Origin: Clostridiales bacterium
GTDB taxonomy: Bacteria > Bacillota > Clostridia > Christensenellales > DUVY01
Direction: 5' to 3'
Assembly (NCBI GenBank): GCA_031263605.1
Contig: JAISFM010000153.1
Location: 1-15,709 of the forward strand
DNA length: 15,709 nucleotides
Shown here: in pieces, positions 1 through 15,709 of the stretch
Layout of the letters: each line of letters starts with the position of its first letter
How positions within the stretch are numbered: the stretch's first letter is position 1
Translations under genes and position numbers: made by a program
The notes under the pieces: model-generated
What the model was told of the DNA's origin: nothing
Databases searched by the model: none
What the model saw: only the letters and a program-made list of their open reading frames with translations

Positions 1-1
1 C

Positions 2-976: not shown

Positions 977-1018
977 GAAACCGCGATTAAGGCTATCCGC
1001 AAAAAGCGCGCCCATATT

Positions 1019-1180: not shown

Positions 1181-1201
1181 TAAACGGAAAGGCGGTCGGC
1201 G

Positions 1202-2074: not shown

Positions 2075-2085
2075 TCATATAACCC

Positions 2086-2559
2086 TTATTCCTTACTTAT
2101 AAAATGCTCTATGCTATCCGACATGCTTTCTATTTTATCCTTTATAAAAGCGGGGTAAATTGTTAAATTTTTTATTTCGTTTATCGTTCGCCACTCTAAC
2201 AAGACTTTGCAATTATCTTTGTGCGATTCAAAATAATGATCGGGCAAATCGCCGTCGTTTTTTAATTTGATTAAATAATAGAACGCTACCGTATGCGCGT
2301 CTTTTTTGCCCCGTGTCCAAAAAATCTCCTCAACCCAAACGAGGCGGTTTACTATAATATCCGCGCCCGTTTCTTCTTTGTATTCTCTTATAAGCGCTTC
2401 TTCGGACGTTTCGCCCACTTTAACGTGCCCTCCGGGCAAAGCATACTCGTTCCCGCCCTTTTCTCTTTGAACGAAAATCTTATCGCCCCTTATGAGTACG
2501 CCCGCAGTCCTGAAACTGCAAACGCCGCGTTCGTCCGAAAACAGCCAATCCCTTTCCAT
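2086..2559 (-). CDS. NUDIX hydrolase
   Basis: Nudix box GGHVKVGETSEEALIREYKEETG matches GX5EX7REUXEEXGU. Length is 157 aa, typical for the family. Confidence 0.85.
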   Translation of the reverse strand: MERDWLFSDERGVCSFRTAGVLIRGDKIFVQREKGGNEYALPGGHVKVGETSEEALIREYKEETGADIIVNRLVWVEEIFWTRGKKDAHTVAFYYLIKLKNDGDLPDHYFESHKDNCKVLLEWRTINEIKNLTIYPAFIKDKIESMSDSIEHFISKE

Positions 2560-2671
2560 TTTGTCAGTTTACCATAAACCGACGCAAAAATCAAACCAAA
2601 TGTACGCCCCCCACCAAACGCGAGCGTTAAATAAAGGTATAAAACGGGTGTTAAATCCTCATAATAGACTT

Positions 2672-2728
2672 GTTGCGGAATTAAAAGGCGAGCGGAATTG
2701 CGATGGATTTTGCGGCAAACAAAGATAA
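2672..2728. repeat. Dispersed repeat R2, copy 1 (gttgcggaattaaaaggcgagcggaattgcg..gattttgcggcaaac). Copy 2 is at 4375-4427.
   Basis: The two copies are ~90% identical over ~55 nt. Confidence 0.6.
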
Positions 2729-2873
2729 AAATTGATGATTGCAACAACGCTGCTATCGAAATTTTTATCAAAGTTTGCCACAAAAAGACGCGCAAGGCCG
2801 CCGCAAGTTAATTTCGCAACAAGTCTAATAAGAGAAAGCGTTCAACGCTTTTTTACCGGAGGAGATTTTAACG

Positions 2874-3182
2874 GTGAAAGATTTACGGTGTTCTTTGGAC
2901 AACTGCTCGCACAACAAGGGGTTTATGTGCCGCGCGCGGCATATTCTGGTGACGGAGGAAGCGGACTGCGCGTCCTACAAACCCGAATTCGAGCGGGAAA
3001 GCGACGACAACATCATGTTCGAGGCGGGCATGGAGGGCTTTTCCCAGACGCTGGACGGCCCGAAGATTCATTGTTCCGCCGACAGTTGCGTTTTCAACAA
3101 ATCGGAAAAATGCGAGGCCAACGGCGTCAGCGTTTTGAGCGAGGCGCGGGAACCGGTTTGCGCCACGTTTGCGTTGAAATAG
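2874..3182 (+). CDS. DUF1540 domain protein (two Cys-rich repeats), GTG start
   Basis: GGAGGAG RBS about 9 nt upstream of the GTG. Duplicated C-x-x-C-x..C pattern (LDNCSHNKGFMC and HCSADSCVFNKSEKC) is typical of Firmicutes DUF1540. A rho-independent terminator follows. Confidence 0.7.
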   Translation: MKDLRCSLDNCSHNKGFMCRARHILVTEEADCASYKPEFERESDDNIMFEAGMEGFSQTLDGPKIHCSADSCVFNKSEKCEANGVSVLSEAREPVCATFALK

Positions 3183-3284
3183 GACGCCCCGCGCTTGCTG
3201 CCGCGAGGCGGCGGATAGAAAAACAGCAGAACTTGCGGCGGCCTTTCGCCTTTTATTTTCGCAAGGGGCCTGTGTATAGTTTAA

Positions 3285-3318
3285 TCGGACGGTTTATTTT
3301 GTGCGCCGTCCGATTTTT
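3285..3318 (+). terminator. Rho-independent terminator (tcggacgg-loop-ccgtccga + TTTTT). A second ccggaccgg + T7 hairpin lies at 3324-3345.
   Basis: 8-bp perfect stem followed by a T-run, downstream of the DUF1540 CDS. Confidence 0.65.
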
Positions 3319-3397
3319 CCGTTTGAAGCCGGACCGGTTTTTTTATCGCGCTTGCCTTTTGACGGGCATAGCGCGAGAAAAAGGCCCGTTTAATCAT

Positions 3398-4015
3398 TTA
3401 GCGGTTTCCGGTTCGGGGCCTTTGATAGTTCGGGTTTTTTATCTTGATCCACGCCTCGGCGCGCCGCCCGGGGAAATACTGCCCGTCCGACCGTTTGGCG
3501 ACAATCCCTTCTAAATTTTCCCGCGCGGCCGCTTGGAACAACGCTTTGCCCGCCGACGGGAAAACGTCGGTCAATTCGATATTGGCGAAATTCGCGCCGG
3601 CGAATAACCTTTCCAATACCTTGCGCCGCTCTTGCCAAGGCCGCTCTGTCAGGGTTTTGCCGTCCGACGCCAAAAGATCGAAAACGGCATAGCGGACGGG
3701 GGTTTCCTTTAAAAACCGCGCGGACGGTTTTTCGACCCGGTCGCGTTTTAGCAAACGATAGAAATCGGGCCGTCCGTCCGCGTTCAGCGCGATAATTTCG
3801 CCGTCCAAAACAACTTTGCGGTTTAAGTTTTTTAATTCGGCGGCGATTTCGGTATAGGTATTCGTTCGCCCGTGCCCCCGGCGGTTGACAAGGCGCGCGT
3901 CCCCGTCCCCGCAATAGGCCAGCATCCTCACGCCGTCGAATTTCAATTCAAAAACATAATCAGGGCTGTCGAACGCTTTTTCCGCCCTCGACAGCAGCAT
4001 CGGTTTAAATTCCAT
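3398..4015 (-). CDS. ATP-dependent DNA ligase, nucleotidyltransferase domain only (205 aa). It ends immediately after motif V. There is no OB domain and no recognisable SD, so it may be a truncated remnant or pseudogene.
   Basis: Motif I is KFDGVR (KxDGxR). FDLL (III), EGIVAK (IV) and WIKIK (V) are in the canonical order. The reverse complement of 4016-4035 shows no GGAGG. Confidence 0.65.
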   Translation of the reverse strand: MEFKPMLLSRAEKAFDSPDYVFELKFDGVRMLAYCGDGDARLVNRRGHGRTNTYTEIAAELKNLNRKVVLDGEIIALNADGRPDFYRLLKRDRVEKPSARFLKETPVRYAVFDLLASDGKTLTERPWQERRKVLERLFAGANFANIELTDVFPSAGKALFQAAARENLEGIVAKRSDGQYFPGRRAEAWIKIKNPNYQRPRTGNR

Positions 4016-4254
4016 AGGGGGAAGCGGAGTACCGCGGCGCGACGGATTTCATTTCTATAACAGTATGCCACACTTTTCCAAAATTACAGCCTTTTTTATA
4101 AAGCGGCGAAACTTCTTTGTATGAACTTTCGACTTTATTTGCGGTAAAACGCAATCGGTTTAATCAAATGCGCTTATTCAAGAGAACGAGCGGCGGCGGG
4201 AAGTATTGAAAACCGCGTTGCTCATGAACACGGCTCGGCCTTGCGCGGAGGACA

Positions 4255-4350
4255 GCGATTAGCGTCCAGTGTTGCCAATCTCTGTATAAAAATGTGCGTT
4301 TCGTGTTTTGTAGAGATTGCCGCGTCGCGCTGCGCGCTCCTCGCAATGAC
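4255..4350. repeat. R1 palindromic element, copy a. The right arm is gtagagattgccgcgtcgcgctgcgcgctcctcgcaatgac (4310-4350); the left arm is degenerate.
   Basis: The right arm is shared with copies at 4489-4530, 4540-4559 (partial), 5345-5386 and 12401-12441. The central tataaaaa..gcgtttcgtgtttt is shared with the 12326-12441 copy. Confidence 0.65.
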
Positions 4351-4374
4351 TTCGGCCGTTGCGCTCGCAACAGA

Positions 4375-4427
4375 GTTGCAGCGGAATTAAAAGGCGGGCG
4401 GAATTGCGCCGGATTTTTGCGGCAAAC
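4375..4427. repeat. Dispersed repeat R2, copy 2
   Basis: Matches 2672-2728. Confidence 0.6.
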
Positions 4428-4488
4428 CGAATGACAGAGGGCAGCGCGTTCGGAATGAGAGAGAAAAGCGCGGGGCGTTCCGGTGGTT

Positions 4489-4559
4489 GGTAGAGATTGC
4501 CGCGTCGCGCTTCGCGCTCCTCGCAATGACAACGGGGCGTTTGCGCTCCTCGCAATGAC
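4489..4559. repeat. R1 right-arm copy (4489-4530) plus a partial tandem right-arm fragment (4540-4559)
   Basis: ggtagagattgccgcgtcgcgcttcgcgctcctcgcaatgac, followed by gtttgcgctcctcgcaatgac. Confidence 0.65.
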
Positions 4560-4660
4560 CCCGTATTCATTTCGCTGCAAGTCTAATGACCGGTAATAGT
4601 TTGTACACTCCCCACCGTAAAACACTGGCGTAAAATAAAGTAATATGATATACTATTGCC

Positions 4661-4800
4661 ATTAAACGACATTTTTCTCATGTTGACCCGTCAAGGCGGG
4701 TCTATAAGAAGAAAACAATCCGGCTCCAAGCGGAAAATCGGACAGAGCACATAAAAGAATGTTCGTACCGGATCGATACCCCGCGGCTTGCGCGTTGACG
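4661..4800 (+). ncRNA. R3, a conserved ~140-nt intergenic element, copy 1. The second copy is at 15365-15506. It is either a candidate structured leader/small RNA or a dispersed repeat.
   Basis: Two same-orientation copies at roughly 80% identity. One stem, tccgN/tcgga, shows a G-U to A-U change between copies. An internal gacccg-tcaagg-cgggtc hairpin is present in copy 1. Both copies end with a TTGAC(G/A) hexamer. Confidence 0.35.
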
Positions 4801-4868
4801 TTCGCAGAGCCCGTCCCCCGATTGGACGTTACCAAACAAAAATAGAGTACATAAGGAGAATACATACA

Positions 4869-5066
4869 ATGGCAACGGCAACCCCTATTCATGTGACGCC
4901 CCGTCCCGACGGGAAATGGCAGGTCATCAGAGGCGGCGGCGAAAAAGCGTCGGCCGTGACCGACACCCAAGCCGAAGCGATCGAAATCGCGAAAGGGTAC
5001 TCCCACAACGACGGCGCGCAGGTCATCGTCCACGGCCGCGGCGGCAAAATCCGCAAAAGTTGGTAA
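4869..5066 (+). CDS. DUF2188 family small protein (65 aa)
   Basis: AGGAGA RBS 7 nt upstream of the ATG. The sequence HVTPRPDGKWQVIRGGGEKASAVTDTQAEAIEIAKGYSHNDGAQVIVHGRGGKIRKSW matches the DUF2188 pattern (HV.P..DG.W.V...G..RA....T.AEAI..A......g..v.iHg.DGkI). Confidence 0.7.
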   Translation: MATATPIHVTPRPDGKWQVIRGGGEKASAVTDTQAEAIEIAKGYSHNDGAQVIVHGRGGKIRKSW

Positions 5067-5191
5067 GAAAGGCTTGATAGTATAGCCCCCCCTTTCCGGA
5101 AACCCGTCCAAACCGGCGGGTCTTTTTGCATGGCACGGCGGCACGGGGGAAGTGAGAATCGAGAAATGTTGGAATTTAGTGGTTAGTGATT

Positions 5192-5327
5192 AGTGTCGGT
5201 CGGGGGATGTTTGCGCGGGGAAACCACCCCGTAGCCTGTCGGCGGCATCCCTCCGAGGGAGGGGAATAGAGAAGTGAGAATTGAAAATTGAAAATTGAGA
5301 AGTGTCGGTCGGGGGATGTTTGCGCGC
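5192..5327. repeat. Direct 26-mer repeat agtgtcggtcgggggatgtttgcgcg (5192-5217 and 5301-5327) flanking purine-rich (gaaaatt)n microsatellite-like sequence
   Basis: Exact duplication read from the sequence. Confidence 0.6.
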
Positions 5328-5344
5328 GGGGCGTTCCTGTGTTT

Positions 5345-5386
5345 GGTAGAGATTGCCGCGTCGCGCTTTGCGCTCCTCGCAATGAC
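5345..5386. repeat. R1 right-arm copy
   Basis: ggtagagattgccgcgtcgcgctttgcgctcctcgcaatgac. Confidence 0.65.
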
Positions 5387-5408
5387 GAAGCGTTCCTGTG
5401 TTTGTTTG

Positions 5409-5480
5409 CTTACCGTTTATCTTTTACTTCTTACCTCTTACCTTGTTATCTTTACACCTTTCCCTCTCCCCTTTTCTCCC
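5409..5480 (+). repeat. ~72-nt pyrimidine (CT)-rich low-complexity tract
   Basis: cttaccgtttatcttttacttcttacctcttaccttgttatctttacacctttccctctccccttttctccc. Strong strand asymmetry. It mirrors the purine-rich tracts at 5147-5190 and 5269-5300. Confidence 0.55.
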
Positions 5481-5522
5481 AAATTCTCAATTAAAAAATA
5501 TTTCGGTACCTGCGCAAAAACA

Positions 5523-5575
5523 GTTGACAAAGTATTTAGGTATCTGTTATAATATAGTTAGGTACCGATAAATAG
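5523..5575 (+). promoter_or_regulatory. Sigma-A-type promoter with an overlapping inverted repeat that is a likely MarR operator. -35 is TTGACA at 5523-5528, spacer is 17 bp, and the extended -10 is TGtTATAAT at 5546-5554. The repeat is atttaggta...taggtgcctaaat.
   Basis: Canonical hexamers with correct spacing, about 50 nt upstream of the marR-family CDS. The inverted repeat tatttaggta / ataggtgcctaaata brackets the -10. Confidence 0.65.
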
Positions 5576-5604
5576 GTGCCTAAATAAAAAGGAGGGACAT
5601 TATT

Positions 5605-6294
5605 ATGTCTAAACAAACTAAGGAACTGTACGAAAAACTGATGCGGCTGCAACGGATTTTGCGCCGCTTCCAATTCCACACCAAAATCGCCAACGGGCCC
5701 ATGAGCGACACGGCGCAAGGGCAGGGCAGGGTCATGGCTATCCTGAAAATGCGCCCCGAAATAAGTGTGGGCGACCTGGCCTATTTGTTGGGGATACGCG
5801 CGTCCTCGCTGAACGAACTCCTCAACCGGCTGGAAAAGGGCGGCTATATCACCCGGACGGCCTCGGAGGAGGACAAGCGCGTCGTCATCGTGCGCCTGAC
5901 CGAAAAGGGCAAAAACGAGGAACTGCCCGACACCGGCGTCGAATCCATGTTCGATTGCCTGAACGAGGGCGAACGCAAAACCCTTGGGGAATACCTCGAC
6001 CGGATTTTGGCCGCGCTGAAGGACAAGGTGGGCGACGAGCGCGACGATTTCGACCTGATGAAGGCCTTGCGGCAACGCAAGGGCGAACAATTCGGGCGCG
6101 ACTTCGAGCGTTTCGGCAGAGGCGTAGAACGGTTCGGCGAGGACTTTGAGCGCAAAATGCGCGGGTTCTTCGACGGCTTTCACGGGGGAGAGGATGCCGA
6201 TTGCGCGGAGGATCCCGACGACGGCGCAGAGGCCGGCGAAAAGCGCGGCGATAACGACGGCGAAGGGCAGGACGACGGCGGCAAAGTGGATTAA
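5605..6294 (+). CDS. MarR family transcriptional regulator with a C-terminal acidic low-complexity extension containing FGRDFERFG / VERFGEDFER repeats
   Basis: AAGGAGGG RBS. The winged-HTH core is GDLAYLLGIRASSLNELLNRLEKGGYITR...DKRVVIVRLTEKG. The last ~80 aa are D/E/G/R-rich. Confidence 0.8.
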   Translation: MSKQTKELYEKLMRLQRILRRFQFHTKIANGPMSDTAQGQGRVMAILKMRPEISVGDLAYLLGIRASSLNELLNRLEKGGYITRTASEEDKRVVIVRLTEKGKNEELPDTGVESMFDCLNEGERKTLGEYLDRILAALKDKVGDERDDFDLMKALRQRKGEQFGRDFERFGRGVERFGEDFERKMRGFFDGFHGGEDADCAEDPDDGAEAGEKRGDNDGEGQDDGGKVD

Positions 6295-6317
6295 GGTTTT
6301 TTGAAGGGGGGGGCGGC

Positions 6318-6543
6318 ATGAGCGGGGCTGTAATGGCGCGGAAAAAATCCCGCGCTGTCCCGCATGCTGCCGATGACCTATTGCTTGGATTTGTGCCGCG
6401 CGGTCGTTTGCGCGGGGGCGCCGGAATACGCCGACGTAGTACTGTTCGACCCGTGGGTCAATTTCGCCGCGATAGCGGGCTTGACGGCGGTGTTTTTGGT
6501 TTTAGGCGCGTTCTTTTTTGCGAGGGCGGCAAAGAAGAAATAG
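6318..6543 (+). pseudogene. Small membrane protein gene interrupted by an apparent +1 frameshift at an A6 run (6342-6347). ATG 6318 has a strong GAAGGGGGGGG RBS but runs into a Gly/Arg-rich non-coding-looking frame. The +1 frame (6334-6543) encodes ...MLPMTYCLDLCRAVVCAGAPEYADVVLFDPWVNFAAIAGLTAVFLVLGAFFFARAAKKK, with GC3-rich, hydrophobic, coding-like codon usage.
   Basis: RBS position and codon bias (GC3) were compared between the two frames. A homopolymer lies at the frame junction. The 59-aa +1-frame ORF falls below the ORF-track cutoff. Confidence 0.4.
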
Positions 6544-6593
6544 TAATTTTGCGATAAACGGATCGGACGGCCGATAAAACCCGTTTCGCGCGT

Positions 6594-6622
6594 TTGCCGA
6601 AACAAAAAAAATGTGGTATAAT
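6594..6622 (+). promoter_or_regulatory. Promoter: -35 TTGCCG (6594-6599), 17-bp spacer, extended -10 TGgTATAAT (6614-6622)
   Basis: Canonical spacing. It is followed about 25 nt later by a terminator-like hairpin, and the tRNA gene lies ~120 nt downstream. Confidence 0.5.
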
Positions 6623-6645
6623 TTATGCGTCGGTTTGCAAGGCGG

Positions 6646-6684
6646 CACGCGCCGTTCGATGAGGACCGGCGCGTAAATTTTTTT
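6646..6684 (+). terminator. Terminator-like hairpin (gcacgcgccg...cggcgcgt) followed by aaaTTTTTTT
   Basis: 8-9 bp GC stem plus T7 run. It could terminate the marR/small-ORF transcript, or define a ~55-nt transcript from the 6594-6622 promoter. Confidence 0.5.
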
Positions 6685-6741
6685 AACGGGCGTTTTCTTA
6701 ACGTATGCCCGCCGAAAAAAACAAGCGCGCAAATCTTTTAT

Positions 6742-6816
6742 TGGGGTGTAGCCAAGCGGTAAGGCACGGGACTTTGACTCCCGCATTCGTAGGTTCAAAT
6801 CCTCCCACCCCAGCCA
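6742..6816 (+). tRNA. tRNA-Gln (anticodon TTG)
   Basis: Cloverleaf folded by hand. Acceptor tggggtg/cacccca. Anticodon stem cggga/tcccg with loop cTTTGac (U33, A37). T-loop ttcaaat. Discriminator g plus encoded CCA. There is one T-stem mismatch and a 3-bp D-stem. Confidence 0.8.
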
Positions 6817-6930
6817 GATTGATCAAGCGAAACCCGGTTGCAAACCGAGCGAAACGCCCAGTTCAAGCGATATGCGGAAATGCGGAAATATGAGTTGTCC
6901 CTAACCTCTTTGGGGCCGTTGCGGGATGGA

Positions 6931-7920
6931 TTATTTTTGCGGCGTATGCATAAGCCGGAGTTGTTTTGCCAACCGTTCTTTGATTTGGCCTACAAAGCCT
7001 TGCGGGCTTAGGACTTTTACGGTGGGGCCGAAAGACAGTATCCGAATGAGCAATTCCGTTTCATCCGCAATATCGTAAGAGAGTTGGCAGGTATAAATAC
7101 CGCGATCGGGGTCATATTCGGTTTTGCGGTCAAAAGAGGCGAATTGCAACAGGAAACGTTCCAACGCATTCCGCTCCTTCGTGATTTCAAGCGTTATCGG
7201 CGGATTGGCATTCGGTTCTGTGAACAATTTGCGCACGATTTCCGGCGGCGCGCGGTGCGGCAAGCCCGACGGCTCAACCGAAACGATTCTGCCGAGATTT
7301 AAGGTTACTTTATTCAATTTTTGCGTTTTGGCGTTGAATGCGGCGCACAGCAGGCGGAATTTATCGTTAAGAGATGAATAACTTAATTTGAACGGGTGAT
7401 AGGCGCGTTGCGACCGCCCGACCCTTTCGCTGTGATAAACGATTGCGACGGGATACTTGTTTTTGCAGGCTTTTAGCAGTTCACGGAAGTTGGCGATATA
7501 AGCCGGGTCGCCGTAAGGGTCTCCGTCAAGGTGGCGGTCAACGGAAATAAAATCGCCCGCGTCAAAGGCGGGGGCGACGCCGCTTAACGCCCGCGCCAGC
7601 GTCGCCAGAGTTTCATCGCTTAAAAACAACCTTATGCGCGGGTCGGACAATAACGCTTTCAGCCACGATAATTCAAGTTGCGTCAGCGGCCGGATCGGCT
7701 GCGCGTCCAATTTTGAATAGTATAAATCGCCGCGCTTTTCCAGAAAGTTCCAGTCGCCGTCCAAAAGTTCGGGCAACAGGTGGAATGCCGTCTCGGAAAA
7801 ACCGTGTTCGCTTACGACGGCGTCGATATCTTTTTTGGAGACGCCGCCGCCGGCGCGCTTAACAATACGCGAAACTATGCCGTAGTAGCAGCCGTACAGT
7901 TCGGAAAACAGTTTACTCAT
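6931..7920 (-). CDS. WYL domain-containing protein, 329 aa (PafC-like partner). A WYL-like core (FRLLCAAF...LNLGRIVSVEP) is followed by a WCX-like C-terminus (ELLIRILSFGPTVKVLSPQGFVGQIKERL). Start at ATG 7920 with a GGGAGGAGG RBS, overlapping the upstream gene's stop by 8 nt.
   Basis: The C-terminal ILSFGP.V.VL.P motif is characteristic of WYL/WCX regulators. The N-terminus is paralogous to the upstream gene (MSKLFSEL vs MAEFSEL). The ORF-track M at 8007 lacks an RBS, so internal M30 with a strong SD is chosen. Confidence 0.65.
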   Translation of the reverse strand: MSKLFSELYGCYYGIVSRIVKRAGGGVSKKDIDAVVSEHGFSETAFHLLPELLDGDWNFLEKRGDLYYSKLDAQPIRPLTQLELSWLKALLSDPRIRLFLSDETLATLARALSGVAPAFDAGDFISVDRHLDGDPYGDPAYIANFRELLKACKNKYPVAIVYHSERVGRSQRAYHPFKLSYSSLNDKFRLLCAAFNAKTQKLNKVTLNLGRIVSVEPSGLPHRAPPEIVRKLFTEPNANPPITLEITKERNALERFLLQFASFDRKTEYDPDRGIYTCQLSYDIADETELLIRILSFGPTVKVLSPQGFVGQIKERLAKQLRLMHTPQK

Positions 7921-9145
7921 CGCCCGCCTCCTCCCGTATCCCGTACATCTCGGCCATGCGGCGGATATCGGCGGCCAGTTTTTTTTCAAGCCGGTCGGTC
8001 GATTCAAAAGATATAAGTCTGCCGATAAAAGTTTTTACCCACGGCATCGCTTCGTTAGCGTCGAATATATCCTTGGAAAACTTAAAAGTATTGTCGCCGA
8101 CGCGCTCGAACGCGCCGCCGCGCCCTTCCTTGTTTATCCTGCTTATAATATGCTTTTCACGGTTCTCGTCGATGCGCAGGGTCATAGAAAACCCCCTTTC
8201 GTTCCTTGAATCGCCGTCGAATGAAACGCCCCAGACCCTGCCGATGTTTCGGGAGAGGGATTCCTGTATTTCCATATAGTTTTCGACCGGTTCTAAGGCC
8301 GCGACGGATTTGATTGCGTCGAGGCGGTAGGTTGAAAACCTGCGGGAGGCGGGGAGGTACGCGCAAAGGTAGCGGCGGCCGCTCCAAAAACTGCACAGGA
8401 TTTTTGCGGGCACGACTCTGTTTTTTACCGGTTTCCCGCTTTTTGCGCCGACGAGTACGGCCTCGATTTCTTTATGTTCGCGCAGGGCGTCCAGAATATC
8501 GAAAAGGATTCCGTCTTCAAGCGTGTGCGCTATGTAATGGTGCTTGAACACGAATAAATCGTTTTCACAGCCGGTATTGTCCAAGATATAGTCGCCGATT
8601 ATGCCCAAGGCGCCGCTTTGGAAAAATTTGACGGCGTCCAAGATTTCGTCGTCTAAATTTACGGTGTTTTTTGATAGGCTGTAACGGAACGCTTTGCCGT
8701 TCTTTTCTTTGGTCAGAATGCCCAATCCCGCGTACTCGGCGCACTTGCCGCGCACGGTTTGCAGGTCAAAGAAGTTGCCGCTTTTAGCCGATATTTCATC
8801 GGTCAATTCGTCCGCCGACTTATCGCCGGTTTGCAACGCGTCCAAAATGTAAAAGTGCAGCATAATATCGTTGCCTGTGAAACTCTTGCTTTTCCACGCC
8901 GCGAATAAAGGGTTGGCGGGGATTTTTCCGCAATCCGCGGAAACGAACGAAACCTTACTGCCGCCGGCATAAGCCCATTTGAAGTTTTCGCCTAAATAAC
9001 TTTCGCAGCGGCGTTTTTCGTTATCGTATGTGCGGGCGGATTTCAATGAAAAATCATCGCGCGCCTTAAACCCGTATATGTAAAAGTCGCGCATAAAGTC
9101 TCTGATTTTATTGAAGTTTTTAATGAGTTCCGAAAATTCCGCCAT
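7913..9145 (-). CDS. WYL domain-containing protein, 410 aa (PafB-like partner). WYL motif: PAKILCSFWSGRRYLCAYLPASRRFSTYRLDAIKSV. C-terminus: MPWVKTFIGRLISFESTDRLEKKL.
   Basis: Start at ATG 9145 (GAGGT RBS), chosen over the ORF-track start at 9262. WYL consensus is wYLvay...r..R.frLdRI. It is translationally coupled (8-nt overlap) to the downstream WYL paralog. Confidence 0.65.
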   Translation of the reverse strand: MAEFSELIKNFNKIRDFMRDFYIYGFKARDDFSLKSARTYDNEKRRCESYLGENFKWAYAGGSKVSFVSADCGKIPANPLFAAWKSKSFTGNDIMLHFYILDALQTGDKSADELTDEISAKSGNFFDLQTVRGKCAEYAGLGILTKEKNGKAFRYSLSKNTVNLDDEILDAVKFFQSGALGIIGDYILDNTGCENDLFVFKHHYIAHTLEDGILFDILDALREHKEIEAVLVGAKSGKPVKNRVVPAKILCSFWSGRRYLCAYLPASRRFSTYRLDAIKSVAALEPVENYMEIQESLSRNIGRVWGVSFDGDSRNERGFSMTLRIDENREKHIISRINKEGRGGAFERVGDNTFKFSKDIFDANEAMPWVKTFIGRLISFESTDRLEKKLAADIRRMAEMYGIREEAGDE

Positions 9146-9214
9146 AGCGTACAACCTCGAACTATGCGTACATATTGTATCAAAAAAACGCGCGCAAGTC
9201 AAAGTAACGGAAGG

Positions 9215-9270
9215 CTCGCAAACTTTTTTATACGCAAAACCGTGTTTTTCGGGTTTTCGCAAACTTTTCT
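9215..9270. promoter_or_regulatory. Divergent intergenic region with direct repeats, a candidate operator for the WYL pair or the rtcB promoter. The repeats are ctcgcaaactttttta (9215-9230) and ttcgcaaacttttct (9256-9270), plus cgcaaaac at 9233-9240.
   Basis: Repeats are spaced ~41 bp apart (about four helical turns) between the WYL-B start (9145) and the rtcB start (9342). TTGATA and TATAAT-like hexamers are present at 9291-9312. Confidence 0.4.
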
Positions 9271-9341
9271 ATTCGGTAATTATAGATCGGGCTTGATATA
9301 ATGGCGGTATAATCAAAACGATCAAACGGAGGGCAAAAGCA

Positions 9342-10574
9342 ATGTTCACGGTAAAAAACAAAAAAATGAAGTTTCCGATTAAGGCTTGGCTTAAAAACAG
9401 AAGCCAAACGGAAGAGGGGTGTTTGGAGCAGGCCATGCGCCTTGCCGAGATGCCGTTTTTACATAAATGGGTCGCCCTTATGCCCGACGCGCATGTCGGA
9501 ATGGGAATGCCTATCGGCGGCGTTATCGCTGCGAAAGGCGTTGTAATCCCGAACGCGGTCGGCGTCGATATCGGGTGCGGCATGGCTTATGCGGGGACGG
9601 ATATCAGGGTTGCGGAGGTACGGGGAATCGCCACAGGCAACGGGCCGTTCATGCAGGCCCTTGTGGGGGATATACTCCGCAACATTCCGGTCGGCTTTAA
9701 CCGCCATAAGACAAAACAGGCTTGCGCCGCTTTGGACAAGGCGGCCGCCGAGGCGGATAAATACGCGGCGAACCCCGAACTTGCCCGGGAGATAGAAAAC
9801 GGATACTATCAAGCCGGAACGTTGGGCGGCGGCAATCATTTTATCGAAATTCAGGAATCCGACGACGGATTTTTGGGAATCATGATCCATTCGGGCAGCC
9901 GCAACTTCGGAAAGCAAATATGCGACTATTATCATAAAGCCGCCCGCGCGCTCAACGAAAAGTGGTACGCGCCTATTCCCGACGAATGGCGGCTGGCGTT
10001 CTTGCCGATCGACAGCAAGGAAGGGAAACAATATATCGACTGGATGAATCTTGCGCTTGACTTTGCCTATGAAAACCGCGCGTTGATGTTGAAGGCGACG
10101 CAAAACATACTGGACAGGATGATGCAAAAATACGCGCATGCCGACTATAAGTATACGGACGAGATTAACTGCCACCACAATTACGCCGCTATCGAGCATC
10201 ATTATGACGCGAACGTCTGGGTTCACCGTAAGGGCGCGACAAGGGCGAGAGCGGGCGAGAGGGCTGTAATCCCCGGAGCGATGGGCTCTTACAGTTATAT
10301 CGTCGAGGGATTAGGGAATGCGGAAAGTTTTTGTTCGAGTTCTCACGGCGCGGGCAGGCGGTATTCCCGTAAGGGCGCGACGGAAGCGTTTACGGCCGAA
10401 CAGGTACTGCGCGACTTAAAGGGGCAAGGCGTTGTGTTGGGCAAAAACAACAAAGCCGACGTCGCCGAAGAAAGCCGCTTCGCGTACAAGGACATAGACG
10501 AAGTTATGAGCAATCAAAAAGACCTCGTTAAAGCCGTAACGCGCTTGAAAACCGTGGGCGTCGTAAAGGGCTGA
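9342..10574 (+). CDS. rtcB: RNA ligase RtcB (3'-phosphate/5'-OH RNA-splicing ligase), 410 aa
   Basis: GGAGGG RBS. Hallmark segments: PDAHVGMGMPIGGV, GVDIGCGM, GGGNHFIEIQ, HSGSRNFG, CHHNYA, and SSHGAGR containing the nucleophilic His. Confidence 0.9.
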   Translation: MFTVKNKKMKFPIKAWLKNRSQTEEGCLEQAMRLAEMPFLHKWVALMPDAHVGMGMPIGGVIAAKGVVIPNAVGVDIGCGMAYAGTDIRVAEVRGIATGNGPFMQALVGDILRNIPVGFNRHKTKQACAALDKAAAEADKYAANPELAREIENGYYQAGTLGGGNHFIEIQESDDGFLGIMIHSGSRNFGKQICDYYHKAARALNEKWYAPIPDEWRLAFLPIDSKEGKQYIDWMNLALDFAYENRALMLKATQNILDRMMQKYAHADYKYTDEINCHHNYAAIEHHYDANVWVHRKGATRARAGERAVIPGAMGSYSYIVEGLGNAESFCSSSHGAGRRYSRKGATEAFTAEQVLRDLKGQGVVLGKNNKADVAEESRFAYKDIDEVMSNQKDLVKAVTRLKTVGVVKG

Positions 10575-10599
10575 CAAAGCGTACTAAGGGCTTTAAAAC

Positions 10600-10760
10600 C
10601 CTAAAATACATCTGTTATTATCCTATACGGACGGTTTCTATGCCGTCGTGGTGCCCTTCGTCTCTGACCGTCGGGTATGCCGGATAGTAATAGGCCCCCG
10701 CGGTTGGGATTACCGCTCCGAGACAGTATGCGGGTTCGATTCCCGCGCCAAGTAATTGGA
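10600..10760 (+). ncRNA. Candidate tRNA-like/Y-RNA-like (YrlA-type) non-coding RNA downstream of rtcB. It contains a canonical T-arm gcggg-TTCGATT-cccgc (10730-10746) and a plausible anticodon-like hairpin gcggt-tgggatt-accgc (10700-10716). No complete cloverleaf or acceptor stem could be folded.
   Basis: A T-arm consensus (GGTTCGATTCC) sits in a 500-nt gene-free region immediately 3' of rtcB. The minus-strand ORF 10618..10926 translates to ...GAGIEPA..., the classic artefact of reading a tRNA T-arm in reverse. Module boundaries are uncertain. Confidence 0.35.
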
Positions 10761-11080
10761 TGTTGGCAACAGAAAGCGGCCTGATAAGCCACAGTATTTG
10801 AAACTGTTCAAGGAAAACCGGATTTGAAGCAAGGGCTTCCGGCGCGTTCGCCAAAGCGGGCAATGCCCGTAGCGGCGATGCGCGCGGCGGCTTTCTTGTC
10901 CGCGGCGCGGGGATACCGTTCGGCAAACCTTAAACCCATAACGCTTTTTACGAAAGGCGCACGCCGGATAAGGCCGCCCGAACTCAACCGCCGCCCCACA
11001 AAAAAGGCGCGGAAGCCTTTGCGGAAAATCTTATTCAAACACAAAAACAACAAAAAAACAAATTTAGGAGAAGCGGAGAA

Positions 11081-12184
11081 ATGAAAATCATCATCCATCA
11101 AAACGAGCGCGGTTTCTTATTCAAGAACGGTACATACAAGAGGATGCTGCAACCCGGCAAAAACAAGGTAAATACTTTTTTAGGCGAGACCTTTGTGCGC
11201 GTCGGTTTGGACAAACCGGTTAAGGTCGCCGGTACGGATACGGAGATTTTAATGCGGGACGCGGAGTTTGCCGCAAGCGTGTTAAAGGTTGACGTCCCCG
11301 ACGGCTGTTTCGGCGCGGTTTTCAAGGACAACTGCATCAAGGACATCTATAAGGCGGGTAGTCATGTCTTTTTCAACCTCTACGGCAACCTGTCTTTCAA
11401 ATTGATCGACATTTCCAAGGTGGAGGTTGAGGACCTGACCCCTTCGCAGATTGACAGCCTGCCGAAAGGCCTTTACAAAAAGATTGTCGTTGCCGAGGGC
11501 GAGGTGGGTTTGTTAAATCTTGACGGTAAGTTTGTCCGTGAACTGAAAGCGGGCGCGTACTGCTTTTGGGATGCTTATACCGCCGTAACTTGCGAGAAGG
11601 TCGATTTGCGCTCTCAGGAACTGGAAATTAACGGTCAAGAGATTTTGACCGCCGATAAGGTATCTTTGCGCGTAAACTTTATCGCGAACTACCGCGTCAC
11701 GGACGCCGTTAAAATCACCGGAGAGGTCAAGAACTACAAGGAGCGCATCTATACGGTTACGCAACTGGCTTTGCGCGAGTATATCGGCAAGTTCCGTTTC
11801 GACGAACTTTTGGAACAGAAAGAGAATATCGCGTCAAGCGTTTTGACCCAACTTCAAGCAAAGTTCGGCGAATATTGCGTTGAGTTTACGGGCGCGGGCT
11901 TAAAGGACATCGTCCTGCCCGGCGAGATTCGGGACATCATGAACACCGTTCTGATTGCCGAGAAAAACGCTCAAGCCAACGTTATCGCCCGTCGCGAGGA
12001 GGTCGCGTCCACCCGGAGTTTGCTTAACACGGCCAAACTTTTGGACGAAAACGCCACGCTTTACAGGTTAAAGGAAATGGAATATTTAGAAAAAATCTGC
12101 GACAAGGTCGGCACAATCTCCGTCGGCGGCGGCAGCCTCTTAACCGAACTTCAAAAAATCGTCGGCGCGCCCCGGGCTAAATAG
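11081..12184 (+). CDS. SPFH/band-7 (stomatin/prohibitin/flotillin-like) domain protein, 367 aa
   Basis: AGGAGAAGCGGAGAA RBS. SPFH-like core: LREYIGKFRFDELLEQKENI...IVLPGEIRDIMNTVLIAEKNAQANVIARREE. Confidence 0.6.
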   Translation: MKIIIHQNERGFLFKNGTYKRMLQPGKNKVNTFLGETFVRVGLDKPVKVAGTDTEILMRDAEFAASVLKVDVPDGCFGAVFKDNCIKDIYKAGSHVFFNLYGNLSFKLIDISKVEVEDLTPSQIDSLPKGLYKKIVVAEGEVGLLNLDGKFVRELKAGAYCFWDAYTAVTCEKVDLRSQELEINGQEILTADKVSLRVNFIANYRVTDAVKITGEVKNYKERIYTVTQLALREYIGKFRFDELLEQKENIASSVLTQLQAKFGEYCVEFTGAGLKDIVLPGEIRDIMNTVLIAEKNAQANVIARREEVASTRSLLNTAKLLDENATLYRLKEMEYLEKICDKVGTISVGGGSLLTELQKIVGAPRAK

Positions 12185-12331
12185 GCTTGCGGCGAAAATG
12201 AATCACCCTGCGGCAAGACCGCGAGGAATTTACCCGGAGAGATTAAAAGGTAAGCGGAAAGACGCCCAAAGGCCGCCCGCGAAAATGTCCGCGCCGCGAG
12301 GTCGGGAGTGGACAAATAGCGATGATACTGG

Positions 12332-12441
12332 GTCATCGCGAGGAGCGAACGCAGTGAGCGACGAAGCAATCTCTATATAAAAAGGCGCGTTTCGTGTTTT
12401 GTAGAGATTGCCGCGTCGCGCGTCGCGCTCCTCGCAATGAC
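12332..12441. repeat. R1 element, complete inverted-repeat copy. Left arm gtcatcgcgaggagcgaacgcagtgagcgacgaagcaatctcta; central tataaaaaggcgcgtttcgtgtttt; right arm gtagagattgccgcgtcgcgcgtcgcgctcctcgcaatgac. It is followed by the R4 module gtttgtacaccactcccgtgagg (12466-12510; compare 4598-4625).
   Basis: The arms are reverse complements of each other over ~40 nt. Same family as 4255-4350 and others. Confidence 0.7.
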
Positions 12442-12521
12442 TTGCCGTGTTTACAATCAACGCGGTTTGTACACCACTCCCGTGAGGTTAACAGTTTCTA
12501 CACCCGCGAGGTTAAAATCGT

Positions 12522-12550
12522 TTGACGGCGGGCGAATTTTAGTATATAAT
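12522..12550 (+). promoter_or_regulatory. Promoter for the rtcB2-prfH operon: -35 TTGACG (12522-12527), 17-bp spacer, -10 TATAAT (12545-12550)
   Basis: Canonical hexamers with correct spacing. A leader ORF and terminator follow. Confidence 0.6.
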
Positions 12551-12580
12551 ATTTATATCCTGCAAACGGAGGGTCTTATC

Positions 12581-12616
12581 ATGCGTGTGCAAAATTTGGA
12601 AAATTTAATAGTTTAG
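12581..12616 (+). CDS. 11-codon leader ORF (MRVQNLENLIV) with a strong GGAGGG RBS 7 nt upstream
   Basis: Perfect SD and spacing, sited between the promoter and an intrinsic terminator. Speculative as a regulatory leader peptide. Confidence 0.35.
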   Translation: MRVQNLENLIV

Positions 12617-12642
12617 AACGGTAAAATCGTACTCTTGATAGG

Positions 12643-12671
12643 AGCCGCGGTTTTTCGCCGCGGCTTTTTTA
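12643..12671 (+). terminator. Intrinsic terminator (agccgcgg-tttttcg-ccgcggct + T6) in the leader of the rtcB2-prfH operon. The 3' half ccgcggcttt is repeated at ~12718-12730 (ccgccgcggctttggcg), and a second hairpin cggcttg...caagccgTTTTcat lies at ~12698-12751, consistent with alternative attenuator structures.
   Basis: 8-bp perfect GC stem plus T-run. The duplicated 3' strand was read directly. Confidence 0.6.
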
Positions 12672-12776
12672 ATGTCTAAAACGGGAATATTCCTTTTTAC
12701 GGCTTGTCTGTTAATCCGCCGCGGCTTTGGCGATTTTTAGGCAAGCCGTTTTCATATGTCAATAAAAAAGGAATTT

Positions 12777-13850
12777 ATGAATACAAATAACAAATTGACT
12801 ATCGTCTCGGACGATAAAAACTGGATGGAGGGCAGCGCGGTAAATCAAGCCCGTGAGGTTTGCAATCTTGACGGGGTTCAAGCCGTGTTCGCTATGCCCG
12901 ACCTTCACGCGGGCAAAACGCCCGTAGGGGTAGTCGTCATCACAAAGGGCAAAATCTACCCTCATTTAATCGGCTCGGATATCGGTTGCGGAATGAGTAT
13001 ATTCTCGACCGGCGTCGAGAGCAAAAGAATCAAAACGGACAGGTGGGTTAGCCGCCTTAACACGATCAAAACCTTGGCGGCGGTTCCGAATAGCGAATAC
13101 CGTTTCGATTGCCCGATACCGGATTTCGGAAGCATAGGCTCCGGCAACCATTTCGCCGAGTTTCAAGCAATCCACGAGGTCTTTGACGCGGGCGGTTTGG
13201 CGGCTCTGGCAATGGACAAATCCGAACTTTTTATGACCGTTCACAGTGGATCGAGAAGTTACGGGAGTAAAATCTTGCAAGAGTTTAACGACCGCAACGG
13301 CTACGCCGCGGACGGCAAAGAGGCAAAAGGATATCTGGAAAAACACGGCGACGCTCTTTTTTGGGCGGCAAAGAACAGGTATGAGTCGGCAAAGAAGTTA
13401 ATCGATTACTTGGGCTTTTCGCAAGCGGTAGAGCGCAAACTGGAATGCGGCCATAATTTTTTGGAGCGGTCCGGCGGCTTGTATTATCACCGCAAGGGAG
13501 TTGTGTCCGCTCAAACCGGCGCAGTGCTTATCGCGGGTTCGAGAGGGACGCTCAGTTACATCGTAAGGCCGACGGCTAAATGCGCGGAGTACGGTTACAG
13601 TTTGGCGCACGGTAGCGGCAGGAAATGGGCGCGCAGTATGTGTAAGCCCCGCATTCGGGAAAAGTACACCTTGGAAACAATCAAGCGGAACAAGTTCGGC
13701 GGCCAACTGGTTTGCCACGATTACGGTTTGCTGTTCGAGGAAGCGCCGGACGCGTACAAGAATGTGGACGTTATTATTGCCGTATTGGAACGGTACGGCA
13801 TGATTGAGCGCGTCGCCGCCCTCAAACCTGTGCTTACTTTTAAGGGTTAG
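12777..13850 (+). CDS. rtcB2: RtcB-family RNA ligase paralog (release factor H-coupled RtcB2), 357 aa. ATG 12777 with an AAGGA RBS is preferred to ATG 12756.
   Basis: RtcB motifs: MPDLHAGKTPVGVVV, GSDIGCGM, GSGNHFAEFQ, HSGSRSYG, CGHNF, and AHGSGRK containing the nucleophilic His. It sits immediately upstream of prfH. Confidence 0.85.
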   Translation: MNTNNKLTIVSDDKNWMEGSAVNQAREVCNLDGVQAVFAMPDLHAGKTPVGVVVITKGKIYPHLIGSDIGCGMSIFSTGVESKRIKTDRWVSRLNTIKTLAAVPNSEYRFDCPIPDFGSIGSGNHFAEFQAIHEVFDAGGLAALAMDKSELFMTVHSGSRSYGSKILQEFNDRNGYAADGKEAKGYLEKHGDALFWAAKNRYESAKKLIDYLGFSQAVERKLECGHNFLERSGGLYYHRKGVVSAQTGAVLIAGSRGTLSYIVRPTAKCAEYGYSLAHGSGRKWARSMCKPRIREKYTLETIKRNKFGGQLVCHDYGLLFEEAPDAYKNVDVIIAVLERYGMIERVAALKPVLTFKG

Positions 13851-13864
13851 GGGGGGAGGAGCGT

Positions 13865-14476
13865 ATGTTATACCACATAACGGCGGGGCGCGGCCCTGCG
13901 GAATGCGAACTTGCGGTCGGAAGGTTTCTGGCCGTTTTGGCCGCCGAGACGGACGTTGAGGTTTTGGCGAAGGCGGAAGGGCGGTACGCGGGCTGCCTGA
14001 AATCCGCGCTTGTGAGGGCGGGCATAAACGGCCCGCCCTTGCAAGGCACGGTGCAATGGATATGCAGAAGCCCGTTCCGCCCTAACCACAAGAGAAAGAA
14101 TTGGTTTATCGGCGTTAACCGAATGGACGAGCCGAAAGATTGCGGTTATGAAATCGGCGGCGGCGGCGGCGTGGTTTTTCAGACCTTCGGCGCGAGCGGC
14201 AAGGGCGGGCAGCACGTAAACAAAACGGAATCCGCCGTCCGCGCCATCCATATCGCAACGGGGCTTACGGCGACCGCAAGCGGCGAGCGCAGCCAACATC
14301 AGAACAAGAAAACCGCCGTGGAGCGGTTGAATGAGTTGCTTCGGCAACGGGAGGACAGCCGGGATCTTTCCGAAAAGGGCGCGCTCTTTTTCAACCATAA
14401 TAACCTGTCCCGCGGCAGCCCCGCGCGGATATACGAGGGTATCGGCTTTAAGCGGATTACAGGAGATACAACATGA
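13865..14476 (+). CDS. prfH: Peptide chain release factor H (PrfH): a short RF homolog with the GGQ motif, lacking the codon-recognition domain 1. 203 aa.
   Basis: GGAGGAG RBS. SGKGGQHVNKTESAVRAIHIATG is the class-I RF peptidyl-hydrolase GGQ loop. The ~200 aa size and rtcB paralog adjacency match the RtcB2-PrfH module. Confidence 0.85.
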   Translation: MLYHITAGRGPAECELAVGRFLAVLAAETDVEVLAKAEGRYAGCLKSALVRAGINGPPLQGTVQWICRSPFRPNHKRKNWFIGVNRMDEPKDCGYEIGGGGGVVFQTFGASGKGGQHVNKTESAVRAIHIATGLTATASGERSQHQNKKTAVERLNELLRQREDSRDLSEKGALFFNHNNLSRGSPARIYEGIGFKRITGDTT

Positions 14477-15354
14477 GGATTATTTCAAATTTTAAGGACT
14501 ACTACGACTTTGCGGGCTTTGCCGCGCGTGACGGCGATTATAGGGAAACCGTATACTTGCGCAAGCCCGCGTTAAAAGTAACGGACGTGCCGCAGGAATA
14601 TGCCGACGCCAATCCTCAAAATTATTACGGCGGCGGCTTGGACGCGGTTACATCGAAGTGGTGGACGAAAAACAAAAAGGTATTTTCTTTGCCCGATACG
14701 CCCGGCGGCGCGCGGCCGGGCTGCCTTTTTGTATGCGGTAAAGCCTATCCGTTTTTATTCCTGCGCGGGGCGGCTCGAATCGGCGCGGACGGTAAAGGCG
14801 GGCAAATTAGGTTTTCAAAGTATTTTAACGACGCTATCAAAGACAGTATCGCTAAAAAGCGGGAAAAGCATAATTGGGAGCGCGATAGAAAAGACGAGGA
14901 CGAATTCAATTTTTTTAGAGTTTATTATTCTATGCGTGAATTTTTTGAGGACGCGACGGCCGAAAAGCATACCGTTTATTATTCCCGACGGTATAGATCG
15001 GATAATTTAGAGCGCGACCTAACGCGATTCTTTGACTTTTATGAGGGCAAAGATTTTACCGAGTTGCATTTGCGTTTGGATTGCCCGATTTTCCTTACGC
15101 TTTTTCAGGAAAGCGGAGTTAGGCGGGGCGATTTACGGCGCGAATACGAATTTGTTTTAAATCCGAACCTCTATGAATTTGATTTCGCAAGGGTTATGAG
15201 CGGCGATATTTTAGCGCAGGAACTGGATATGTTTTTAGGGAACGCGCTTGTCAAGGACAGTATGCCGCTTTCATACCAGTCCGATATCGATAAACTGACG
15301 GCATACGGTTTCGACGCCGTAACGTCGTTTCGGACTATAAAAGACAAGAAATAG
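14473..15354 (+). CDS. Hypothetical protein, 293 aa. Its start overlaps the prfH stop (ATGA), making it the third gene of the rtcB2-prfH operon.
   Basis: The 4-nt overlap implies translational coupling. GC3-rich coding-like usage. No recognisable motif. Confidence 0.6.
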   Translation: MRIISNFKDYYDFAGFAARDGDYRETVYLRKPALKVTDVPQEYADANPQNYYGGGLDAVTSKWWTKNKKVFSLPDTPGGARPGCLFVCGKAYPFLFLRGAARIGADGKGGQIRFSKYFNDAIKDSIAKKREKHNWERDRKDEDEFNFFRVYYSMREFFEDATAEKHTVYYSRRYRSDNLERDLTRFFDFYEGKDFTELHLRLDCPIFLTLFQESGVRRGDLRREYEFVLNPNLYEFDFARVMSGDILAQELDMFLGNALVKDSMPLSYQSDIDKLTAYGFDAVTSFRTIKDKK

Positions 15355-15364
15355 CCCGCCTCAT

Positions 15365-15506
15365 TTAAACGGACATTTTTCTCATGTTTGCCCGTCAAGA
15401 AAGCCCAATCAGAAGAAAATAGTCCGACTTCAAGCGGAAACATCGGACAGAGTAGAAAGAAAAATGCCCGTATCGGGTCGATATCTCGCGGCTTGCCGCG
15501 TTGACA
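15365..15506 (+). ncRNA. R3 conserved element, copy 2, beginning 11 nt after the operon stop. It is followed by a perfect GC hairpin ccccgccg-cttg-cggcgggg at 15541-15560.
   Basis: Aligns with 4661-4800 over its whole length. Confidence 0.35.
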
Positions 15507-15627
15507 GATTAAACTATACCACTCTTAACCTACATGATGCCCCGCCGCTTGCGGCGGGGCGGGTGCCCCTTCGATCGGCCGCGGGAATAAAAACATTAGT
15601 TTCTTTCAGAAACTTGCGTTCAAACGC

Positions 15628-15690
15628 TTGACAAGGAGGGGAGCGATGTGGTAGTATATACAGGCTGTCTTTAAAAGGCAGTTGTTTTTT
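15628..15690 (+). promoter_or_regulatory. Promoter-like TTGACA (15628-15633) with an 18-bp spacer and TAGTAT (15652-15657), followed by a short hairpin plus T-run (15662-15690) at the window edge
   Basis: Hexamer match only. The downstream context is cut off by the window end. Confidence 0.3.
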
Positions 15691-15709
15691 GCACTTTTTA
15701 GGGCGTTGG

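Follow-up and report, generated by a model that had tools for sequence, protein, structure and literature searches.

The window considered here is a stretch of 15,709 nucleotides from a Clostridiales bacterium (GenBank assembly GCA_031263605.1, contig JAISFM010000153.1, positions 1 to 15,709 of the forward strand), and it carries a cassette of three genes, rtcB2, prfH and orf3, the last of which, with its protein ORF3, is the subject of this analysis. With orf3, whose product comes from an orphan family of phage type to which no fold family can be assigned, the cassette represents a new, three-gene form of a system already known for ribosome repair. Its features are the following.

12522 to 12755, plus strand: the 5' control region of the cassette, with a putative promoter, leader open reading frame (ORF), terminator and second hairpin

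12756 to 13850, plus strand: rtcB2, the first gene of the cassette, encoding a 364-aa release-factor-associated RtcB RNA ligase (TIGR03073, Pfam RtcB)

13865 to 14476, plus strand: prfH, ending in a TGA stop codon and encoding a release-factor homologue of 203 aa that carries a GGQ motif (TIGR03072, Pfam RF-1)

14461 to 14465, plus strand: the Shine-Dalgarno (SD) sequence AGGAG of orf3, read directly from the sequence, 7 nt ahead of the start codon and still within the 3' end of prfH

14473 to 15354, plus strand: orf3, 293 aa with an ATG start, taken from the ORF list, with which the translation agrees

15354 to 15440, no strand assigned: the 3' boundary of the cassette, a terminator-like site of a hairpin (15354-15374) and a T-rich run that then merges into a copy of repeat D2

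Both known genes are identified above the cut-offs of their families, with RtcB2 scoring 330 bits against TIGR03073 (cut-off 271.8, E = 1.5e-98) and PrfH scoring 183.7 bits against TIGR03072 (cut-off 166.65, E = 2.9e-54). The RtcB2-PrfH system of ribosome rescue and repair is a two-gene operon in E. coli ATCC 25922 (PMC9304027, PMC9223846), and the two proteins suffice in vitro for the system as characterised (PMC9304027). Whilst the locus in the window has the same first genes, in the same order and with tight spacing, it adds a third gene that is translationally coupled and a predicted leader-peptide attenuator that is specific to its clade. An earlier reading made from the sequence alone (the sequence-only reading) had called orf3 the least understood part of a ribosome-repair locus, and with a published pathway of two genes (PMC9304027) this description holds.

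orf3 is a genuine and conserved gene, far beyond a chance ORF. A word-indexed search of 5.8 billion proteins returned 15 proteins, none of them named, which included the self-match (annotated as a hypothetical protein of a Clostridiales metagenome-assembled genome, MAG) and 14 non-self homologues (E-values between 1e-114 and 4e-7). Conservation of the N-terminus MRIISNFKDYYD begins at residue 1, which fixes the start codon, and this ATG overlaps the stop codon of prfH in the sequence ATGA (14473-14476). Searches of Pfam, NCBIfam, PADLOC and PDB sequences with the single protein gave no matches, and the sole library match, found by hmmscan, was to the PHROG family phrog_4243 of 'unknown function' (E = 2.6e-11), which covers the C-terminal 63 residues of ORF3 and lies at the end of the profile. 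The protein had been described as uncharacterised and as having no recognisable motif, and both statements stand, with no curated library or solved structure identifying it; a confident match to a housekeeping family unrelated to translation or RNA repair, which would have refuted the reading, was not obtained.

The order rtcB2-prfH-orf3 is found in six independent cassettes with unrelated flanks, these being the window and the contigs L001, L010, L011, L004 and L182, with ORF3 identities to the window of ~60% in L001, ~35-41% in L010, L011 and L004 and ~38% in L182. In five of the six (all except L011) the stop codon of prfH and the start codon of orf3 overlap as [AG]TGA, an arrangement retained at ORF3 identities down to ~38-41%, and purine-rich sites comparable to the AGGAG of the window precede the overlap in L001, L010 and L004. 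The coupling to PrfH that had been proposed from the position of the gene is thus borne out by the conserved overlap, and orf3 is translationally coupled to prfH. At the junction of prfH and orf3 in L011 three tandem copies of a ~83-nt repeat have been inserted (~2790-3030), and related copies at the 3' end of orf3 in this locus account for the odd length of 386 aa and the repetitive C-terminus of the protein P0008. In every cassette ORF3 is the fastest of the three to diverge: its identities are 39-62%, those of PrfH 71-83% and those of RtcB2 76-86%. The GC content of the loci runs from 36% to 52%, and this spread, with RtcB2 still 76-86% identical, indicates that the cassettes have been transferred horizontally.

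Signals for expression surround the three genes as a group. Upstream of rtcB2 there is a promoter-like TTGACG-17-TATAAT at 12522-12550 (scoring 11/12 in a promoter scan), followed by the leader SD GGAGGG at 12568-12573, a leader ORF of 11 codons (MRVQNLENLIV*, 12581-12616), an intrinsic terminator at ~12644-12670 and a second hairpin at ~12699-12744 that lies just ahead of the rtcB2 ATG. No terminator lies inside the cassette, promoter, leader and terminator being present only upstream of rtcB2 and a hairpin following orf3, a layout that places orf3 in the predicted transcription unit of the cassette. The leader-peptide attenuator is kept in all five cassettes that were aligned, with a promoter TTGACx-17-TATAAT, an SD GGAGG and an ORF MRV[TQ]NL..L..*, and the stem of its terminator shows compensatory changes (GCCGCGG / GCCACGG / GCCTCGG); the region has an RNA fold z-score of -4.0 and matches no family in Rfam. 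A search of 49 distant rtcB-prfH loci did not reveal it, and the putative attenuator is specific to the clade of the window. Its design suggests that stalling of ribosomes on the leader switches on the repair operon, and an operon that itself senses ribosome stalling would tie the sensing of damage to its repair.

The 3' end of the cassette meets one of several dispersed repeat families. The sequence-only reading had placed a dispersed repeat 11 nt after orf3; the repeat is real, belonging to the family D2, and its similarity reaches 5' to ~15362, so that it starts close to the distance given. Four such families of 50-80 nt (D1-D4) flank the gene modules of the window, with copies at 4276-4352, 4456-4532, 5312-5388 and 12367-12443, at 4668-4736 and 15372-15440 (the two D2 copies, 81% identical) and at 2658-2711 and 4364-4417. 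The cassette itself has a D1 copy immediately before its promoter and a D2 copy immediately behind orf3. In appearance the families resemble repetitive extragenic palindromic (REP) elements or miniature inverted-repeat transposable elements (MITE) that mark the boundaries of modules.

Judged by its sequence, ORF3 is a member of a phrog_4243-type orphan family that is very large and mostly phage-borne. A word-indexed search with a broad family profile added only five further sequences; a profile search run exhaustively over 1.84 billion cluster representatives found 6,405 at E <= 1e-3, mostly of 220-270 aa, with 2,766 remaining at E <= 1e-10 and only 16 at E <= 1e-30. The two ends of the protein carry the motifs M[RK]IIS.FKDYYD, from residue 1, and HGFD..SFRK, which are invariant or nearly so in 145 family sequences. 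The universal core comprises M1, I3, S5, F7, D9, Y11, D12 and R30 on the N side and P205, N230-P231-x-L233, Q249, G279-F280-D281 and S285-F286-R287 on the C side. The invariant polar set of the family is D9, Y11, D12, R30, N230, Q249, D271, D281, S285 and R287, and as its Asp, Arg, Gln and Asn residues persist among sequences that are ~25% identical, the pattern is one expected of an active site or a site for a ligand. Members tend to be mildly basic (median pI 8.6), and the C-terminal tail ...SFRK.K is basic and conserved. None of the 145 sequences has an informative family in Pfam, the profile built from them found no relevant chain among PDB sequences, a literature search by the identifier phrog_4243 returned nothing, and no paper was found that names or studies the family.

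The phage homologues carry both the N- and C-terminal motifs of ORF3. In contrast to phrog_4243, for which the PHROG resource has no functional information, the clade of the window is bacterial and operon-coupled to prfH, and its members are ~50 residues longer, with charged helical insertions at ~104-150 and 213-218. In cellular genomes the family is very rare, three loci having been found among 185,579 species representatives for the pattern that was scanned.

The link with prfH is not confined to the downstream position. A metagenome scan with the PrfH of the window gave 80 loci at 34-47% identity, of which 48 have RtcB directly upstream of prfH, and in 34 of these 48 pairs the two genes are separated by the -6 to +44 nt that is normal for a two-gene operon. 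The hidden Markov model of the family matches five PrfH loci (L150, L157, L165, L168 and L178), in which a member of 198-232 aa fills a gap of ~690-760 nt between rtcB2 and prfH, in L150 overlapping both neighbours by 4 nt each, and this makes the family the most recurrent inserted gene in the 48 pairs. The RtcB2 and PrfH of these middle cassettes are only ~40% identical to those of the window. In the middle proteins the N-terminal motif, P205, NPxL, the C-terminal GFD..SFR and the invariant Arg and Gln are all still present, and the C-G-K hairpin motif and E250 have been lost. In neighbour-joining trees (74 sequences, 225 columns, 40 bootstraps, deep distances saturated) the downstream clade and the middle clade were each recovered in 40/40 bootstraps and grouped together in 0/40, and two clades that never group suggest two independent recruitments into rtcB2-prfH. 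It therefore appears that a phage-type gene was recruited twice independently, the trees being consistent with this and not proof of it.

Several other operons have small unnamed ORFs (61-96 aa) between rtcB and prfH, at 1809-2099 in L106, 3681-3971 in L107, 2463-2648 in L122, 3986-4210 in L175 and 1854-2105 in L011, which may be further accessory genes or annotation noise.

Members of the family also occur away from prfH. Three of the nine contexts of the downstream clade are of this kind, with the member in L008 following a DUF503 gene with an overlapping start, that in L183 following a DnaE fragment and a DUF2795 gene, and that in L184 lying between genes for a phosphoribosyltransferase and a cyclophilin. 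An Ignavibacteria MAG has a member of 246 aa by itself in a neighbourhood of housekeeping genes. Such lone members show the family to be independent of PrfH or RtcB. In one subclade the DUF503 (YlxP-like) gene is start/stop-overlapped with the member in the place of prfH (L008, 5099-6243, and also L009). DUF503 genes are commonly found in the nusA-infB region of Firmicutes, and given this usual location the coupling would add to the hints that tie the family to translation.

Homologues in cultured phages, all annotated as hypothetical proteins, were found in Ralstonia phage RsoM2USA, Stenotrophomonas phage DLP_6, Salmonella phage Arash and Sinorhizobium phage Phosso. The gene lies inside a tRNA array in DLP_6 (L013, 6001-6762) and Phosso (L015, 5983-6759) and 2.5 kb from an array of six tRNAs in RsoM2USA (L012, 6001-6705), and in Arash there is no tRNA within 6 kb. 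A viral scan of IMG/VR with a 39-sequence subset of the family alignment gave 80 loci, on contigs mostly of 100-470 kb. A tRNA is present within 2 kb of the homologue in 22 of the 80, within 10 kb in 42 and on both sides in 13, with the density profile flat at ~0.18 tRNAs per kb around the loci, figures that stand without a matched control, and the association is taken to be no more than regional co-location. Three of the 80 viral loci have an RtcB of canonical type at a distance of 2-5 kb, and none has PrfH. Clustering of the neighbours revealed no dominant partner, the largest cluster being present at 9/80 loci, and the annotated neighbours that recur are a NadR-like NMNAT-NUDIX protein, an ATP-dependent ligase, radical SAM proteins and ribonucleotide reductase.

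Genes of NAD+ salvage recur near family members, in L001, in DLP_6 and in four viral loci. In L001 a set of NrtR, PncA, Prs and NAMPT directly follows the cassette (9095-12957), in DLP_6 NAMPT is 6 kb upstream of the homologue (L013, 1-14), and the four viral loci have the NadR-like NMNAT-NUDIX; viral loci with NAD genes include L024 (5041-6150) and L100 (10550-11248). A survey of NAD and ADP-ribose functions in viruses does not mention the family, and the proximity may reflect only the layout of phage auxiliary regions.

Structure prediction depended on the depth of the alignment, AlphaFold giving a predicted local distance difference test (pLDDT) score of 54 with 15 sequences, too poor for use, and one of 83.7, with a predicted template modelling (pTM) score of 0.81, with the 145-sequence alignment. 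The resulting model is alpha+beta with about ten strands. The sequence-only reading had proposed such a model and a Foldseek search as a check, and this search found no match in the PDB (best E = 0.66). In BFVD seven uncharacterised phage proteins match the model at E <= 3e-5, the best at 3e-12.

Several fold families were considered by their defining features. For ATP-grasp enzymes, in which a RAGNYA domain and a kinase-like domain hold ATP between two sheets, these include an Asp in strand 4 of the kinase-like domain and an ExN that ends the final conserved strand (PMC4431377), and membership was judged against them. The candidate column for the Asp, at residue 203, holds D in 43, K in 39 and N in 29 of the 145 sequences, and whilst N230 is 93% conserved, the position two before it is V, T or I, with E in 11/145. 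Among candidate phosphate-contacting basic residues, taken by alignment column, R30 is conserved in 100% and K/R90 in 83%, the latter being lost in the middle clade. No ATP-grasp match from Pfam was obtained in the 145 members and no ATP-grasp chain from the PDB, and hhalign against an authentic RimK profile gave a probability of 0.3%, the template profile being shallow. Compared with Ddl, RimK, LysX, GshB and R2K/CDC123, ORF3 is without the catalytic Asp, the Glu of ExN and the glycine-rich loop motif, and it is ATP-grasp-like at most in general architecture and not a demonstrable member of the superfamily.

The R2K clade (CDC123 / DUF4343 / R2K.3) would be recognised by a match to PF07065 or PF14243 together with two lysines close to each other in strand 2 and loop of RAGNYA, a combination that was not found. 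The motif I lysine (KxDG) of covalent nucleotidyltransferases (RNA and DNA ligases, capping enzymes, RLIG1) was likewise not found; as the family has no invariant lysine, ligases that work through a covalent lysine-nucleoside monophosphate (Lys-NMP), such as RLIG1, are excluded. Nor was the hG[GS]...[DE]h[DE]h signature of Pol-beta nucleotidyltransferases (RlaP, or the RFH-associated enzyme of PMC6514570) present. ORF3 is not a canonical ATP-grasp enzyme, a Pol-beta nucleotidyltransferase or a Lys-NMP ligase.

The explanation we favour is that rtcB2-prfH-orf3 is a mobile cassette for ribosome rescue and repair, of which orf3 would be the third gene. The cassette would be transcribed from its own promoter and leader, with ORF3 made in step with PrfH by means of the stop/start overlap. 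As members also occur alone, the activity of ORF3 is likely to be autonomous and not that of a dedicated subunit of PrfH or RtcB2, and as they occur in phages of very different hosts, the target should be universally conserved. This target would be broken RNA of the translation machinery, probably the 3' end of 16S rRNA in the 30S subunit for the cassette of the window and rRNA or tRNA in the course of infection for the phages. A metal- or phosphate-binding pocket may be built from the invariant polar cluster, which has D9-Y-Y-D12 (following the first strand), R30, N230 and Q249 together with the C-terminal G-F-D...S-F-R, and this pocket would process or present a broken RNA end, after the release of the peptide by PrfH and before or during the resealing of rRNA by RtcB2. 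The pointers from context are all to the RNA of translation (rtcB2-prfH, the tRNA regions of phages, the occasional RtcB, DUF503), and for this reason a factor acting on RNA ends is favoured. We infer its substrate, its catalytic nature and its step in the pathway, and hold tentatively, at somewhat less than an even chance, that it is a metal- or phosphate-binding factor which processes or presents broken rRNA or tRNA ends between PrfH release and RtcB2 resealing. ORF3 is a strong candidate for a missing third component of the PrfH/RtcB2 pathway.

The main rival, which we think unlikely, is a non-catalytic ribosome-binding factor that acts on the damaged 70S or 30S by splitting, by anti-association or by clamping the 3' fragment of 16S rRNA. 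Once PrfH has done its part, such a factor would open the way for RtcB2 and so fill the 'split' step of the published model, a pathway that has no factor for splitting the 70S (PMC9304027). The overlap with prfH, which implies roughly matched synthesis, the basic pI and tail of the family and its presence in phages of very different hosts, which requires a universal target such as the ribosome, would all suit such a role. A cofactor of RtcB is a different matter. Archease is an activator of RtcB in archaea and eukaryotes, and a role analogous to it, as a small accessory protein encoded beside an RtcB ligase, could be imagined for ORF3, by which guanylylation or turnover of RtcB2 would be faster or its use of nucleoside triphosphates wider, through an acidic metal site formed by the termini. 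In the middle architecture the gene comes directly after rtcB2, with which it shares 4 nt, acidic residues are conserved at both termini (D9 and D12, D271 and D281) and an RtcB lies within 2-5 kb at three phage loci. However, ORF3 has no similarity to Archease in sequence or fold and most members of the family are unlinked to any RtcB, and such a cofactor seems the least probable of the roles weighed here. A highly divergent ligase or kinase of ATP-grasp type that modifies a ribosomal protein, PrfH or an RNA end has a precedent in RimK, which glutamylates the ribosomal protein S6; it is improbable.

Protection from damage in place of its repair would be the role of an anti-ribotoxin, an immunity-like factor blocking a nuclease that damages the ribosome or tRNA, which phages would use against the abortive-infection RNases of their hosts and bacteria would have joined to their repair cassette as protection in the first line. 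The rate of evolution of ORF3 is about double that of the RtcB2 and PrfH of the same cassettes, and the family is phage-rich, sporadic and horizontally mobile, its loci ranging over 36-52% GC, all of which would fit. Immunity proteins co-vary with their toxins, however, and the motifs of this family are invariant over thousands of sequences at ~25% identity; there is also no toxin gene consistently adjacent at the loci and no PADLOC match, and this role has a low probability, much as the ATP-grasp enzyme does. It may finally be that orf3 is a passenger, a phage-derived gene inserted beside prfH with no role in ribosome repair. A third of the clade's contexts are without prfH, most rtcB2-prfH operons are without the gene, and the region has been invaded by repeats (D2 in the window, the tandem 83-nt repeat in L011). 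Yet the family is found in two gene orders, in cassettes that are only distantly related, and stop and start codons overlap in both orders; the linkage persists while ORF3 identity drops to ~38-41%, and with so few loci in cellular genomes (3 among 185,579 species) repeated chance adjacency to prfH is implausible and not credible as an account; a passenger is accordingly very improbable, if a shade less so than the RtcB cofactor.

Accessory genes have been described before around RFH-RtcB, namely a tetratricopeptide repeat (TPR) protein, a nucleotidyltransferase of the Pol-beta superfamily, a zinc-ribbon (ZnR) protein with a charged helix and a charged-helical orphan (PMC6514570). The phenomenon is the same as the one here, accretion around the two-gene core of a counter-conflict system (Burroughs and Aravind 2019). 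ORF3 has none of the TPR, Pol-beta or Zn-ribbon signatures, in a comparison made by descriptions, so that an overlap with an unnamed item is possible, and unlike the charged-helical orphan, which is said to be without detectable homologues, ORF3 is alpha+beta and has thousands of them.

The remainder of the window has other genes for the repair or processing of nucleic acids. A second RNA-repair module adjoins the cassette (6931-12184), with a full-length canonical RtcB at 9342-10574, divergently transcribed genes for WYL- and WCX-domain proteins on the minus strand at 7913-9262 and 6931-8007, and an SPFH/Band-7 protein at 11081-12184; a fragment similar to the SPFH gene is also present upstream of the cassette in L001. 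Between 35 and 4015 there are genes for nucleic-acid end processing, these being a Metallophos protein (35-976), a NUDIX protein (2086-2559, minus strand) and a short ATP-dependent ligase of 204 aa that consists of the nucleotidyltransferase domain only (3398-4015, minus strand). The entire window looks like a repair island.

The repair of ribosomes by PrfH and RtcB2 was demonstrated only in 2022, and a conserved and coupled third gene is a direct candidate for the step of 70S disassembly that gives the ligase access to the 30S, or for end processing. It is possible, though we rate it as rather unlikely, that the family represents a new fold, of an enzyme or an RNA-binding protein, with a direct action on damaged translation machinery, as the missing third factor in bacteria and as counter-defence in large phages. 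If this is true, its role in bacteria would be in dismantling the 70S, retaining the 16S 3' fragment or healing the ends at a break in the decoding centre, and in phages it would be a widespread and unrecognised counter-defence that keeps host ribosomes or tRNAs working under ribotoxin attack. If an activity were assigned to the family, much viral dark matter would gain an annotation, and a new means by which phages protect translation would probably come to light as well.

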